Source: Candidatus Alkanophaga liquidiphilum (lineage in GTDB: Archaea; Halobacteriota; Syntropharchaeia; Alkanophagales; B39-G2). Taken from it: DNA of 64,000 nt. This document shows, one piece after another, positions 30,239 to 32,600 of this stretch. Positions within the stretch are counted from its first letter, which is position 1; each line of letters begins with the position of its first letter. Position numbers and translations under genes: made by a program. The stretch lies in NCBI GenBank assembly GCA_029259535.1, contig JAPHEF010000005.1:97-64096 (forward strand). Direction: 5' to 3'. Under the pieces are notes generated by a model, which was not told the DNA's origin, did no database searches, and saw only the letters and a program-made list of their open reading frames with translations.

Positions 30239-32071
30239 ATGCAGCTCGTAAAGGGATACGAGGATTGGATGTATAAGGAGTTGAGGTTGTCGCCTTGTAG
30301 CGGTTACAATCCCCCTGACGAAATACCGGTGAGGTGTGAGCAGATAGACATTGCAGTTTTCAACACCTTTGACGAGATCATCAACAAGCATCCCAGGGAG
30401 AAGCTCTGTGGTTTCTTCCACAGGCATGTCGGTAGGAAGAATAGAACGATACTCCCGTGGCTCCACTGGCTGGATGGCAGCGTCGGCGTATTCGCCACGC
30501 TCGGGCAATACCCCCGATCGAAGGGGGAGAGGGCGGTCATTTGCGCCCCCCTGTATAACCAGCATGATAGGTTAGAATGTGAATGTGGCACTGACTACCA
30601 CGTGCCCACGCTTGAACACGTTACGTCCGTTGCGTATACGAATTACACCCTCTTAGGGCATTTCGCATTCCACCTCAACGGCGGCTTCTGGCGGATGGAA
30701 GACACCATCTGGGGCTCGAACACCGTTGTGGTGGCAGCAGCGCTCAACCACGTCATCCAATCGAAGCCGCCATACAACGACGAGAAGATTTTCGAGCTCT
30801 GGGAGGAGGCGAAGTGGCGGAAGGCAAAGATCAGAAGACTAAAGGCCTTGAAAAGGTTCCTGAGGGAGCCGACGCTTTTGAACCTGAGAAGAGCCGAGCT
30901 CGAAGCGGCGAAAGCTGACTACTGGCCGTATAGGCGGCTGGTCGAGGTGCGATGGCCTGAGCGGTACTTGAGCGTCTGGGAGATAAAGCAGGAGATAAAA
31001 AGGCTGAAGAAAGACGCAGAAGCGAAGGCGAGGCGAGCAGTGGGTGAGCTTTTCAAGAAGGTCGTGTATTTGCCAAAGCCCGGCAATGAGGAGGTCATGT
31101 TCCAGCCGCTCCACCCCGAGGGCAAAGTCGTTTTCAAGCTAATAGGTGAGCTTTCGGAGCTGGAGGATGAAATAAGGAAGGAGAAGGAGAGGATAAAGGA
31201 GACAAGACACGAACGTCGCCGGTTGATGCGGAAGATGCAGCGCCTCATAAAAGAGGCAATAAAGAGGTATCCCGCTCAGATAAAGGAGGAGAAAGCTTCC
31301 CTCAGAGCGCCGAGAGAACGACTTTACAGGAAGGCGTTAAAGGAGCAAGGACGCATCATTGAGTATTTGGGGGCGAAGGAGAATCTAATTATGTTGCGGG
31401 ACATGGTCATAGCGAAGCACCCGCTGCTCAGAGACAAGCGCATATACTTCGTGGGCGTGAAGCCGTGGTTCGCTCACATTTGTGCAGAGCGTCGTCAGGA
31501 GATAAAGTTGCGTGGTGACTATTGGGAAGAAGAACTTTATCCTATATGGTTCGAGCGGCGGTGGCATAGAGCGCACATACGGCGGGATATGAAGGGGAGC
31601 TGCAAGGTGCGGTGGCTTGGCAGCCTCGTGTGTCCAACGCTTCTCTCTTTGATACTGAGCAACGACTCACAAGGCGATCACCAGAATAGCATCACAAGGC
31701 TCGTGTTCAGGATGCGGCATCAGAACAGAGGGATGGGAGAGTGGAAAGTTCTCTCAAGAGACACACGCAAGAAAATTTCATATCCGCTGATGATAAGACC
31801 GATACGTCTCAAAAACGGACACGTAGTTTACGGGCAGGTTTTCGGCGCCGAGGAGTGCCGTCCGCTCCGCCCGCCTGACATCTGGAGGTGCCGGTATTAC
31901 TCGCTGTGGGCATGTTTCTTCTTAGAACTTCTTAACAGCACAGGATTGCACAAGATAGTATTCTGGAACTCAACACGCAATCACCGCTACCGCCGCCCGT
32001 TCGTGCGGTTCAACTTCAGCTACAACTTCCTCGACCGCATCGTGGACTGGTTCATCCTGAACGTTTGGTAG
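30239..32071 (+). CDS. Hypothetical 610-aa protein: Cys/His/Trp-rich N- and C-terminal regions flanking a long K/R/E coiled coil; ORFan with atypical codon usage
   Basis: Long uninterrupted ORF. AGG/AGA Arg and ATA Ile codons are frequent, unlike neighbouring genes. No recognisable family from sequence. Confidence 0.5.
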   Translation: MQLVKGYEDWMYKELRLSPCSGYNPPDEIPVRCEQIDIAVFNTFDEIINKHPREKLCGFFHRHVGRKNRTILPWLHWLDGSVGVFATLGQYPRSKGERAVICAPLYNQHDRLECECGTDYHVPTLEHVTSVAYTNYTLLGHFAFHLNGGFWRMEDTIWGSNTVVVAAALNHVIQSKPPYNDEKIFELWEEAKWRKAKIRRLKALKRFLREPTLLNLRRAELEAAKADYWPYRRLVEVRWPERYLSVWEIKQEIKRLKKDAEAKARRAVGELFKKVVYLPKPGNEEVMFQPLHPEGKVVFKLIGELSELEDEIRKEKERIKETRHERRRLMRKMQRLIKEAIKRYPAQIKEEKASLRAPRERLYRKALKEQGRIIEYLGAKENLIMLRDMVIAKHPLLRDKRIYFVGVKPWFAHICAERRQEIKLRGDYWEEELYPIWFERRWHRAHIRRDMKGSCKVRWLGSLVCPTLLSLILSNDSQGDHQNSITRLVFRMRHQNRGMGEWKVLSRDTRKKISYPLMIRPIRLKNGHVVYGQVFGAEECRPLRPPDIWRCRYYSLWACFFLELLNSTGLHKIVFWNSTRNHRYRRPFVRFNFSYNFLDRIVDWFILNVW

Positions 32072-32168
32072 TGGCGTTTGTCGCCCCCCCTCACTACTAC
32101 AGCACCGCACAATGCATCGGCTTAGTTGAGTTGCTCATCCTTTTTTAAACCGACAAATATTAGTGTAA

Positions 32169-32243
32169 GGGCCCGTGGCTTAGCATGGATAAAGCACCGG
32201 CCTTCTAAGCCGGGGATCGCGGGTTCGAATCCCGCCGGGTCCG
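32169..32243 (+). tRNA. tRNA-Arg (anticodon TCT)
   Basis: Acceptor GGGCCCG/CGGGTCC. D-stem GCTT/AAGC. Anticodon stem CCGGC/GCCGG with loop CTTCTAA. T-arm GCGGG-TTCGAAT-CCCGC. Discriminator G. 75 nt, no intron. Confidence 0.85.
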
Positions 32244-32600
32244 CTCTCAGAACACATGCTAAAGTAACCCCTGTAACCATTGAGGAGCATCCTTCGGAAA
32301 GGAGCAGCTCCCCCTCGGGCATACGCCCTGCTAAACATATGGATGAGTGTTGGGGCGTCAGCGTTGCTAATATGCACCTCAGCAGAAAACCGTATTGGCA
32401 TTCTCAACTCCACTTCTAACCCTGTCGTTCGGAAGTGGGATATTTTAGCTTAAGGCATCCGCTCCCGCTGCCTCCTCAGCCCAACAGCTTCGCAACAACA
32501 GTCATCCTACTTCCTAAACGATGCAAAGATATTATGTTCAAGGCAGGGCATTGCAGGTCGGTGGTTCTCTACCGCCAGCTTTTTAAAGGTTAGAAAATAG

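Follow-up and report, generated by a model that had tools for sequence, protein, structure and literature searches.

A probably native tRNA-adjacent gene of Candidatus Alkanophaga liquidiphilum encodes a member of a small, Syntropharchaeia-named family of cationic proteins with a predicted coiled coil

Is a long open reading frame (ORF) without a recognisable family, lying just upstream of a tRNA gene, the remnant of an integrated element or a gene that belongs to its chromosome? The question is raised by a 64,000-nucleotide stretch of Candidatus Alkanophaga liquidiphilum DNA (hereafter the window), in which a sequence-only reading had singled out a 610-aa ORF, an adjacent tRNA-Arg(TCT) and a hairpin-rich spacer, and had proposed either a remnant of an integrated element or a novel lineage-specific factor. 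Both the ORF and the tRNA, which was found by ARAGORN and Rfam and starts 97 nt past the ORF stop codon, are present as described. The locus comprises the following features.

30192 to 30219, plus strand: conserved A/T-rich block (AAATGTTAATAAATAATGAGTAAAAATA), 20–47 nt 5' of the ORF ATG
30239 to 32071, plus strand: gene for the 610-aa protein, from the ORF list; its exact sequence is present in public data
32141 to 32149, plus strand: TATA-like box TTTTTTAAA, 20–28 nt 5' of tRNA-Arg
32169 to 32244, plus strand: tRNA-Arg, anticodon TCT (ARAGORN; Rfam RF00005, 68.7 bits)
32245 to 32600, no strand assigned: 356-nt spacer from tRNA-Arg to the convergent acyl-CoA ligase stop, with short, unconvincing ORFs only
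32601 to 34340, minus strand: long-chain acyl-CoA ligase, FadD-like (NCBIfam long-chain-fatty-acid--CoA ligase, E = 2.8e-189)

GenBank labels the ORF product a 'hypothetical protein' of Ca. Alkanophaga liquidiphilum. MDF2954832.1 (610 aa) falls into the same 90% cluster as the ORF, a cluster whose members bear the names A. liquidiphilum and A. volatiphilum, and the aroA, acyl-CoA ligase and KH proteins of the window are exact matches to MDF2954831, MDF2954833 and MDF2954834, a consecutive series in which MDF2954832.1 lies between. Genes identified between 24.5 and 37.6 kb are those for a B12-binding protein, two URO-D proteins, a transglutaminase-like protein, ArsR, AroA, the acyl-CoA ligase, a KH protein, RIO1, eIF-1A, a GTPase, OapB and OapC. 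A 79-aa ORF in the related contig L021 is a remnant of a transglutaminase-like gene. A search for a replication origin near the Oap genes found neither an Orc1/Cdc6 gene nor an ORB-like repeat family at 41.5–43.7 kb.

The A/T-rich block upstream of the ORF is 100% identical to positions 8513–8540 of the A. volatiphilum contig (L004), to which the remainder of the 213-nt aroA–ORF intergenic region does not align, and four lineages share its core AAATGTTAATAAATAAT unchanged. This pattern of conservation is probably that of a BRE/TATA promoter of the ORF, in which case the mRNA would be leaderless or have a short leader. The tRNA-Arg is 95% identical to its copy in A. volatiphilum, and the TTTTTTAAA box, which has a similar counterpart (TTCTTTTAAA) 5' of the tRNA-Arg in L004, suggests that the tRNA has a promoter of its own.

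The codon usage of the ORF had been described as foreign-looking, an impression that the measurements contradict. Its CAI is 0.749, where the 41 other genes of the window span 0.66–0.78, and its GC (0.531) and GC3 (0.687) lie within the range of window genes, as do the shares of AGG and AGA among its Arg codons (47%; window range 17–81%) and of ATA among its Ile codons (54%; window range 15–60%). The codon usage of the ORF is native.

The locus is also shared among relatives. In A. volatiphilum (JAPHEE010000010), aroA on the minus strand is followed by the ORF (82% nucleotide identity) and tRNA-Arg; L015 carries an intact orthologue (87.5% amino acid identity) and then tRNA-Arg; and L021, L022 and L023 have the aroA(−)/ORF(+) order. 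The arrangement therefore recurs in five related Alkanophaga-lineage contigs, A. volatiphilum among them, and the tRNA scan, which covered two of these (L004 and L015), placed tRNA-Arg after the ORF in both. As judged from these alignments, the ORF is orthologous at the same locus across related Alkanophaga lineages, an outcome that the sequence-only reading had itself named as speaking against an insertion. Comparison with the orthologue gave a dN of 0.071 and a dS of 0.977 (omega 0.07), with corresponding values of 0.098 and 1.037 for aroA, and omega was at most 0.12 in every 100-codon window of the ORF with an estimable dS. These substitution ratios indicate strong purifying selection. Because the aroA/ORF order is kept, dN/dS is 0.07, dS is like that of aroA and the codons are native, the gene is old and native and not the remnant of an island. 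We therefore lean, with some reserve, towards the composite reading of a native, vertically inherited gene, probably with its own promoter and under strong purifying selection, that encodes a cationic coiled-coil protein of a Syntropharchaeia-named family.

It is on the far side of the tRNA that the two Alkanophaga species diverge. The alignment with A. volatiphilum ends at window position 32245 (L004 10755), one base past the tRNA, and in these alignments the tRNA-Arg is a synteny breakpoint on its 3' side, away from the ORF. In volatiphilum-type contigs the tRNA is followed by a repeated intergenic element and then hemC and glyA, and the ligase gene is missing from the matching place in A. 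volatiphilum. The ligase, the first gene past the break in the window, is the real compositional outlier of its neighbourhood, with the lowest GC (0.453), GC3 (0.488) and CAI (0.66) of 42 genes. Together with a spacer that has no homologue in the sequences compared, these observations make it quite possible, if still short of probable, that the 3' flank of the tRNA is variable, the spacer and low-GC ligase having been gained or shifted to this place on the way to A. liquidiphilum, or else lost by A. volatiphilum. Weighing against such a history, no integrase, att repeat or second boundary was found, and the two species-level arrangements compared give no direction of change. Low GC alone is a weak sign (positions 56191–57501, for instance, have a GC of 0.479), and the KH protein, RIO1 and eIF-1A genes that follow the ligase are core genes.

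The native gene favoured here encodes a soluble-looking protein with a net charge of +40 and a pI of 9.8, in which Trp makes up 3.4% of residues (about 0.9% in neighbouring proteins) and in which the shares of His (3.4%) and Arg (11.1%) are likewise raised. No transmembrane segment was found in it, the maximum Kyte-Doolittle 19-residue mean being 1.43. Alignments and structure prediction divide it into four parts.

30239 to 30778, plus strand: N-terminal domain, residues 1–180, near-neutral (pI 6.5), from alignments
30779 to 31033, plus strand: residues 181–265, the most conserved block of the family, basic and helical (pI 10.2), from alignments and AlphaFold2
31034 to 31438, plus strand: K/R/E-rich segment, residues 266–400, with long predicted helices at 305–380 and coiled-coil character
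31439 to 32068, plus strand: C-terminal region, residues 401–610, basic, with motifs from alignments and, at its end, aromatic helices of apparently amphipathic character

Positions of the N-terminal domain that are kept across clades are P19, D27, P30, R32, T43, W47, R62, Y106-N107 and G159. The conserved block contains two copies of the motif K-A-x-I-K-K-x-K-A, followed by W229-x-Y-R232 ... R-W239-P ... Y243 ... E-I-K, and the segment of residues 266–400 differs in length among family members. Motifs of the C-terminal region include G498-x-G-x-W502-K, R510, P516, R520-P521, E539-x-R541-P-x-x-P545-x-D547 and R585-x-P-F588. The terminal regions had been called rich in Cys, His and Trp; Trp is enriched in the protein as a whole and His is high, but Cys and His form no motif: conservation does not extend to those of the N-terminal domain, neither residue occurs among the 50 columns kept in at least seven of eight clade representatives, the window protein has no CxxC, and Pfam gave no zinc-finger match. 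Likewise, the proposed core of about 150 K/R/E-rich residues corresponds to a real central helical region that is longer than supposed, spanning roughly residues 181–400.

Domain searches against Pfam, NCBIfam, PHROGs and PADLOC with the ORF and 20–21 family members returned sub-threshold coiled-coil matches only, and the Pfam and NCBIfam scans bear out the earlier statement that the protein has no recognisable motif or domain. Matches to betaPIX_CC, GBP_C, ZorB and Cas10 (E = 1e-2 to 1e-4) were rejected as compositional, as was CFAP46, the best PDB-sequence profile match (E = 0.0023), since it covered the coiled-coil region only. The mean AlphaFold2 pLDDT was 35.5 with two sequences and 45.9 with 20 sequences, and values were below 50 in residues 1–180. 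The models are unreliable, and we regard the predicted helices alone as credible: those at 182–231 and 244–258 have a pLDDT of about 65–84, and those at 305–355 and 358–380 reach up to 89. A Foldseek search of the PDB with the low-confidence model gave nothing at E ≤ 1e-3. Profile searches and structure prediction, the checks suggested by the sequence-only reading, thus place the protein in no known family and give it a low-confidence fold.

An exhaustive HMMER search among 1.84 billion representative proteins recovered a family of 14 clusters at 50% identity (E ≤ 1e-3), with full-length relatives of 484–660 aa. All members with an organism name belong to Syntropharchaeia, the names being Syntrophoarchaeum butanivorans SBU_000084, Syntropharchaeales, Syntropharchaeia and Alkanophagales. 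This distribution agrees with the second suggestion of the sequence-only reading, a novel lineage-specific factor; the family is small and previously undescribed. At least three paralogues occur in A. liquidiphilum, including the window ORF, OD815_000505 (605 aa, 57% identical to it) and MDF2955106.1 (650 aa), and assembly GCA_054799255.1 also holds two. BLASTP against the S. butanivorans member (P0017) gave E = 1e-40 over residues 18–609, and homology is collinear over the full length, including the K-A-x-I-K-K-x-K-A / W-x-Y-R block; a C-terminal G-x-G-x-W-K ... E-x-R-P-x-x-P-x-D motif is common to the family alignments. All 13 full-length members tested have a pI of 9.4–9.8 and 2.7–4.4% Trp. 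Loci of relatives were searched with a C-terminal sub-alignment, and word-indexed protein searches with the full-family and C-terminal alignments added almost no new relatives, K/E-rich words having probably filled the limit of 8000 candidates in the full-family search. The family contexts, each unlike the others, are all chromosomal, with housekeeping genes around them; no gene neighbourhood conserved across the family was found, hence none points to a pathway.

What might such a protein do? We propose, tentatively and with low confidence, a soluble, strongly cationic, Trp/Arg-rich protein in which a globular N-terminal domain is followed by some 200 residues of basic helices and coiled coil and then by a basic C-terminal domain. 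The helical region would drive oligomerisation, and the protein would play a structural or scaffolding part by binding a polyanion, for which RNA or DNA is the likeliest candidate. In our view it is neither an enzyme nor a protein of a mobile element. The high pI and the Trp/Arg richness fit nucleic-acid binding, membrane-surface binding and protein scaffolding equally well. More speculative, and in our estimate unlikely, is the broader idea of a multi-paralogue family confined to multi-carbon-alkane oxidisers that forms a lineage-specific cationic coiled-coil machinery, perhaps a nucleoid or RNA organiser or, speculatively, a scaffold linked to alkyl-CoM reductase metabolism, at which the gene string that leads from one member (in L009) to an MCR-alpha gene hints.

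The protein could instead lie at the membrane periphery as a cytoskeletal or scaffold component, docked to small membrane partners by aromatic amphipathic C-terminal helices. The last 60 residues, with predicted helices, are rich in aromatic residues (8 F, 4 W and 4 Y), the architecture is that of head, coiled coil and tail, and three distant members have small hydrophobic ORFs that overlap them or lie directly beside them (118 aa in L009, 50 and 105 aa in L013, and 79 aa in L011). We nonetheless consider this improbable. The neighbouring small ORFs are not homologous to each other, for which reason a shared small partner gene was rejected, and none flanks the window gene or the paralogue in L001. 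Among the members P0007 alone reaches a Kyte-Doolittle 19-residue mean of 1.6 (1.64), with no clear transmembrane segment, and the amphipathicity of the C-terminal helices was judged by eye.

Still less credence attaches to the idea that the family assists multi-carbon alkane metabolism as an accessory factor, such as a scaffold of alkyl-CoM reductase or of the steps from alkyl-CoM to acyl-CoA. Its appeal comes partly from one genomic context (L009/L010), in which P0031, a member of the family, opens a tight same-strand string: it overlaps by 4 nt the gene for a 118-aa membrane protein, which is followed by genes for a peptidase U32, two DUF5402 proteins, URO-D, a prismane/CODH protein and, at the end, MCR alpha. 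In the window, moreover, genes for URO-D/MtaA-like and B12-binding proteins lie 2–5 kb upstream, and named members occur only in Acr-bearing Syntropharchaeia, with no ANME-1 (Methanophagales) name among them. However, the MCR link is seen in one lineage only, seven other contexts have no adjacent alkane-pathway genes, the URO-D genes are missing at this locus in A. volatiphilum, and the protein has no conserved catalytic or cofactor motif. The lack of ANME-1 names is suggestive only, as it is read from hit names and several hits are metagenome proteins without an organism name. In a look for expression data on the family, OD814_000778, OD814_000904 and OD815_000505 proved absent from the supplements of Zehnle et al. 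(2023; PMC10322722), whose tables contain pathway genes only, and so are OD815_000447 to OD815_000450, tags that we derived from accession order.

The spacer beyond the tRNA had been described as 357 bp without ORFs and with several short perfect hairpins. It does hold only short, unconvincing ORFs, at a length of 356 nt, and the three hairpins quoted are in the sequence, but hairpins are not enriched: there are 7 perfect stems of at least 5 bp, against 6.1 ± 3.1 in dinucleotide shuffles, and stems of 4, 6 and 7 bp are at chance level too. An encoded structured non-coding RNA, or a long 3' trailer of the tRNA, on the plus strand would account for a minimum free energy (MFE) of −110.5 kcal/mol (shuffled, −94.0 ± 5.7; z = −2.9, reached in 0 of 100 shuffles; minus strand, z = −2.1), for a terminator-like hairpin at 32559–32576 followed by T5 (to 32585), and for a gap that is unusually long for a compact genome. 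We find this doubtful. A cmscan search of 29900–32700 with Rfam 15 and permissive filters, which the sequence-only reading had recommended for the spacer, matched the tRNA only; other hits scored 19–21 bits against gathering scores of 36–68, and no Rfam family reached E ≤ 1 in the spacer. No homologue was found in A. volatiphilum or at any locus compared, and tblastx detected no protein-level similarity. Strain variants comprise 7 substitutions in the 356 nt, of which three break predicted pairs and none is compensatory, and with them the MFE weakens to −99.6 kcal/mol. At 2.0%, divergence between strains exceeds that of the two flanking genes (about 1%) and is about that of the upstream intergenic region (1.9%). 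The spacer is most likely species-specific, neutral intergenic DNA in which the convergent tRNA and ligase transcripts have their 3' ends.

That a mobile element integrated at tRNA-Arg and brought in the ORF as cargo, or left it behind as a remnant, is very improbable indeed: the mere 97-nt distance of the ORF from the tRNA, the lack of known homologues in Pfam and NCBIfam, the unrelated contexts of its paralogues and the break in synteny between the two Alkanophaga species at tRNA-Arg are set against its position on the 5' side of the tRNA, its native codon usage, an omega of 0.07 with the dS of aroA, an aroA/ORF order kept in five of five related contigs (with tRNA-Arg after it in both of those scanned), and the outcome of every search for an element. 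Integrases typically target the 3' end of tRNA genes. A direct repeat of the tRNA 3' half, for which the sequence-only reading had suggested a search, was sought at three sensitivities over the 64 kb and not found; 24- and 25-mers of that half match only the tRNA itself with up to three mismatches, and blastn-short and exact k-mer searches gave no other match longer than 12 nt. Pfam and NCBIfam scans of the ORF, the ligase and ten flanking genes (about 5 kb on each side, 24.5–37.6 kb) identified no integrase or recombinase, and no empty site exists among the five related contigs, all of which carry the ORF. The ORF has no viral relatives in IMG/VR, on which ground a viral origin was rejected, and its family has no match in PHROGs. 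The adjacency of the ORF to tRNA-Arg is ordinary gene order and not an integration scar.

The old and native gene that we favour carries a more general lesson, namely that a tRNA neighbour without database matches is not evidence of an island; the impression of odd codon usage, too, failed once it was measured. What the locus yields is a constrained, multi-paralogue protein family whose named members come without exception from archaea that oxidise alkanes from butane to tetradecane, a family without domain model, structure or annotation. Such families are candidates for lineage-specific cell biology in organisms available only as enrichments, and the definition of its members, motifs and paralogues makes this one searchable in transcriptomes and proteomes of enrichment cultures. 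Of the two species, A. liquidiphilum is the one with a preference for longer alkanes (Zehnle et al., 2023; PMC10322722), and the synteny break beside an odd long-chain acyl-CoA ligase may bear on the divergence in substrate range between Alkanophaga species.

Three kinds of known system invite comparison. Like tRNA-targeted integrative elements (archaeal tyrosine-integrase proviruses and plasmids of the SSV type), the locus has a gene of no assigned function beside a tRNA, and that tRNA coincides with a synteny breakpoint relative to the sister species. Unlike them, it lacks both an integrase and a second copy of a tRNA segment, and the ORF, which is 5' of the tRNA and syntenic in relatives, does not deviate in composition; the variable DNA is on the other side of the tRNA. 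SMC/Rad50-like and intermediate-filament-like (crescentin) proteins share with the window protein the order of a globular head, a long basic helical or coiled-coil middle and a globular tail, and its weak database matches are to coiled coils only. Unlike SMC/Rad50-like ATPases, however, it has no ATPase head: Walker A (GxxxxGK[ST]) is absent from it, and none of the 21 sequences scanned matched SMC_N or AAA. Its helical part comprises only about 200 residues and, as a crescentin-type rod, would be short and interrupted (AlphaFold2 helices 182–231, 244–258 and 305–380, at a pLDDT of 60–89); the resemblance to both groups is architectural only, with no sequence similarity or reliable fold similarity. 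Finally, there are the 'hypothetical proteins' of S. butanivorans (SBU_000084/OFV66791.1) and Alkanophaga (OD814_000778, OD814_000904, OD815_000505 and MDF2955106.1). Since no function, domain model or structure is described for any of them, membership in their family is silent on mechanism; they are true homologues of the window protein (E = 1e-40 to 0) and are like it in domain order, motifs, high pI and Trp richness.

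The gene considered here lies in the genome of Ca. Alkanophaga liquidiphilum, a thermophilic archaeon from the Guaymas Basin that oxidizes C8–C14 alkanes via alkyl-CoM reductases (Zehnle et al., 2023, PMC10322722). It is located between a divergent aroA gene and tRNA-Arg(TCT), with a gap of 97 nt between its stop codon and the tRNA gene.

Features of the locus, in window coordinates
28721–30025, divergent from and upstream of the ORF: aroA (TIGR01356, E = 2e-131)
30192–30219, upstream of the ORF: A/T-rich block of 28 nt, identical in A. liquidiphilum and A. volatiphilum
30239–32071, + strand: the ORF, ATG start, 610 aa
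32169–32244: tRNA-Arg(TCT) (ARAGORN; Rfam tRNA, 68.7 bits)
32245–32600: spacer of 356 nt, between tRNA-Arg and the stop codon of the convergent ligase gene
32559–32585, + strand: terminator-like hairpin CGGTGGTTCTCTACCG, then CCAGCTTTTT (T5 tail), at the far end of the spacer
32601–34340, − strand: long-chain-fatty-acid–CoA ligase gene, 579 aa (NCBIfam, E = 2.8e-189)

The coordinates and basic anatomy in the sequence-only reading were right, and the three hairpins that it quoted are present; the codon bias and hairpin richness that it described did not withstand measurement. The aroA, acyl-CoA ligase, and KH-domain proteins of the window are exact-sequence matches to GenBank MDF2954831.1, MDF2954833.1, and MDF2954834.1, and the accession between those of aroA and the ligase, MDF2954832.1, is a 610-aa 'hypothetical protein' in the ORF's own 90% cluster.

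Composition and codon usage were measured on 42 long ORFs of the window. The ORF has a GC content of 0.531, a GC3 of 0.687, and a CAI of 0.749 (0.66–0.78 in the other long ORFs); AGG and AGA make up 47% of its Arg codons (window range 17–81%, with many genes at 45–65%), and ATA accounts for 54% of its Ile codons (window range 15–60%). Codon usage that had looked foreign is inside the window range by these measures, and AGR and ATA codons are the norm of this genome. The true compositional outlier of the window is the acyl-CoA ligase gene (GC 0.453, GC3 0.488, CAI 0.66).

The conserved C-terminal motif was used to scan GTDB species genomes and identified two loci in Ca. A. volatiphilum. Contig JAPHEE010000010 of this species (L004) carries aroA on the minus strand, the ORF, and tRNA-Arg(TCT) in the order and orientation of the window, with 82% nucleotide identity across 30192–32078 and 95% in the tRNA gene. 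In the ORF copy on this contig (OD814_000778, 593 aa as annotated), the reading frame shifts near the C-terminus (L004 about 10195–10383), which we attribute to an assembly error or a strain-specific lesion because the gene is intact on L015 and L021/L022, metagenomic contigs of the L004 type. The arrangement of aroA (−) and ORF (+) also occurs on L023, from a different MAG. Nei–Gojobori comparison of the ORF with its L015 orthologue affords a dN of 0.071, a dS of 0.977, and an omega of 0.07, with omega ≤0.12 in every 100-codon window where dS could be estimated; the values for aroA are 0.098 (dN) and 1.037 (dS). Given the similar dS and the low omega, the ORF is as old at this locus as its housekeeping neighbor and is under strong purifying selection. 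The intergenic region outside the 30192–30219 block has diverged between the two Alkanophaga species, and the core of the block, AAATGTTAATAAATAAT, is invariant in four lineages; the block is a putative BRE/TATA promoter of the ORF, with the box at 30197–30208.

The check for an att-like repeat yielded no second copy of the 3′ half of tRNA-Arg within the 64-kb window (≤3 mismatches, blastn-short, and exact k-mers; longest chance match, 12 nt). None of 10 flanking genes scanned between 24.5 and 37.6 kb encodes an integrase, recombinase, or transposase, and IMG/VR and PHROGs contained no relative of the ORF family and no match to it, respectively. Orthologues at the same locus, native codon usage, and no att-like repeat are the outcome that the sequence-only reading had named as arguing against an integrated-element remnant, and together with the strong constraint and the absence of an integrase among the 10 flanking genes scanned they lead us to reject that view of the ORF. 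Its alternative, a novel lineage-specific factor, stands, as the named family members all belong to Syntropharchaeia.

If anything was gained or moved at this site, it would be the segment 3′ of tRNA-Arg rather than the ORF, a possible though not a probable event that may have run in either direction. Synteny with A. volatiphilum breaks at the 3′ end of the tRNA gene, where similarity stops at window position 32245 (L004 10755), one base past it. Beyond this point the window contains a unique spacer, the low-GC acyl-CoA ligase gene, and then core genes (KH protein, RIO1, eIF-1A), and the volatiphilum-type contigs contain a repeated intergenic element followed by hemC and glyA. Neither an integrase nor an att-like repeat was found, and the comparison covers two species-level arrangements. 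The ligase gene may have been acquired horizontally or relocated; A. liquidiphilum is the Alkanophaga species that prefers longer alkanes.

The repeated element is non-coding, about 110–230 nt long, and intergenic in both Alkanophaga species, with 72–91% identity between copies; in A. volatiphilum, one of them lies immediately 3′ of tRNA-Arg. The element may be a MITE-like repeat or represent a small RNA family.

Copies of the repeated element
Window 5283–5486
Window 13649–13878
L004 10776–10995
L004 7032–7097

A window segment of about 3.8 kb (24942–28748), with genes for two URO-D/MtaA-like proteins, a transglutaminase-core protein, and ArsR, is missing at the matching place in L004. In its place, L021 (68–731) and L022 (117–2882) carry a serine-recombinase (Resolvase) gene, and L022 also an MJ0013 gene; a 79-aa ORF there shares 94% identity with the C-terminal end of the window transglutaminase-like protein and is therefore a truncation remnant. 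A low-GC region (about 0.42) of about 1 kb at 42204–43259 has no ORF ≥100 aa and contains a 19-nt inverted repeat (95% complementary, 42342–42360/42997–43015); a flanking 197-aa ORF has no Pfam match.

The spacer had been described as hairpin-rich, but shuffled sequences have 6.1 ± 3.1 perfect stems of ≥5 bp against its seven, and there is no enrichment at 4, 6, or 7 bp either. The minimum free energy (MFE) of the whole spacer is below that of shuffles (z = −2.9 on the + strand, −2.1 on the − strand), as might be expected if it encoded a small RNA. We consider this improbable, as the spacer has no Rfam match and no homologue, at the DNA or protein level, in A. volatiphilum or the other compared loci. 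Among A. liquidiphilum strains it differs at 7 of 356 positions (2.0%), versus about 1% in the two flanking genes and 1.9% in the upstream intergenic region; three of the seven substitutions disrupt predicted pairs without any compensating change, and the fold becomes less stable, at an MFE of −99.6 kcal/mol. The orientation of the hairpin at 32559–32585 suits a transcript from the tRNA side, not the convergent ligase gene. Most likely, the spacer is neutral DNA holding transcript ends.

In alignments of the protein family, the N-terminal domain spans about 180 residues. Next comes a basic helical block that is highly conserved and in which K-A-x-I-K-K-x-K-A is repeated twice, with W-x-Y-R ... 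R-W-P ... E-I-K after it. A K/R/E-rich helical stretch whose length varies then leads to the C-terminal domain, in which G-x-G-x-W-K, R-P, and E-x-R-P-x-x-P-x-D motifs precede aromatic helices. The window protein lacks CxxC and Walker A motifs, and no Cys or His column is among the 50 that are conserved in seven or more of eight clade representatives, so the Cys/His-rich termini, earlier singled out, are lineage noise and not a metal site. In all 13 full-length members tested, the pI is 9.4–9.8 and Trp makes up 2.7–4.4% of residues (about 0.9% in neighboring proteins), and only one (P0007) reaches a Kyte–Doolittle 19-residue mean of 1.6; the net charge of the window protein is +40. AlphaFold2 gave a mean pLDDT of 35.5 with 2 sequences and 45.9 with 20, with values of about 60–89 only in helices 182–231, 244–258, and 305–380, and Foldseek returned no match.

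The ORF product is under constraint, strongly cationic, rich in Trp and Arg, and predicted to be soluble, with a long helical central part and several paralogues per genome. We tentatively propose, as a rather doubtful reading of these properties, that it would oligomerize via its helices and bind RNA or DNA as its polyanion, with a structural or scaffolding role.

Some gene contexts offer weak leads. The family member P0031, from a distant Syntropharchaeia genome, opens a string of closely spaced genes on one strand (L009/L010 6001–13455). After it come genes for a membrane protein of 118 aa (overlapping by 4 nt), peptidase U32, two DUF5402 proteins, URO-D, a prismane/CODH-like protein, and, at the end of the string, MCR-alpha (alkyl/methyl-CoM reductase). 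P0031 also directly adjoins, divergently, a GTPase–OapB pair (L009 4829–5816), and the window has a GTPase–OapB–OapC ('origin-associated protein') cluster at 36180–37556, starting 4 kb downstream from the ORF. This proximity could reflect old synteny or coincidence; no Orc1/Cdc6 gene or ORB repeats were found near the window cluster. Small, mutually non-homologous membrane ORFs adjoin three distant family members. The recurrence of the MCR-alpha string, the Oap genes, and the membrane ORFs is too rare to count as evidence.

At least three paralogues occur in A. liquidiphilum. Besides the window gene, they include OD815_000505 (605 aa, with 57% identity to the window ORF) and MDF2955106.1 (650 aa), which is divergent from the archaeosine radical-SAM gene RaSEA. 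The A. volatiphilum counterpart of OD815_000505, OD814_000904, is situated between archaeosortase-like and ATP-grasp genes, and another Syntropharchaeia assembly has two family paralogues. All contexts are chromosomal and each is different, with no neighbor gene conserved across those compared. On one Alkanophagales contig (L020 7262–8379), two adjacent ORFs (276 and 101 aa) between RaSEA and the 650-aa paralogue look, by eye, like a candidate split IS200/IS605 TnpB gene; the otherwise syntenic L019 is without them.

An exhaustive HMMER search of 1.84 billion cluster representatives gave 14 matches at E ≤ 1e-3, among them full-length relatives of 484–660 aa at about 25–30% identity. The named matches are all Syntropharchaeia or older labels of the same MAGs (Ca. 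Syntrophoarchaeum butanivorans [SBU_000084], Syntrophoarchaeum sp., Syntropharchaeales, 'Syntropharchaeia archaeon', Alkanophagales). None of the matches bears an ANME-1/Methanophagales name, which at most suggests absence from ANME-1, as several are metagenome proteins without an organism name. Pfam, NCBIfam, PHROGs, and PADLOC, as well as all PDB sequences searched by profile, gave nothing other than coiled-coil noise. GenBank already lists the window gene as a hypothetical protein; what this analysis adds is the definition of a hitherto undescribed basic coiled-coil family with several paralogues per genome and with named members exclusively from Syntropharchaeia.
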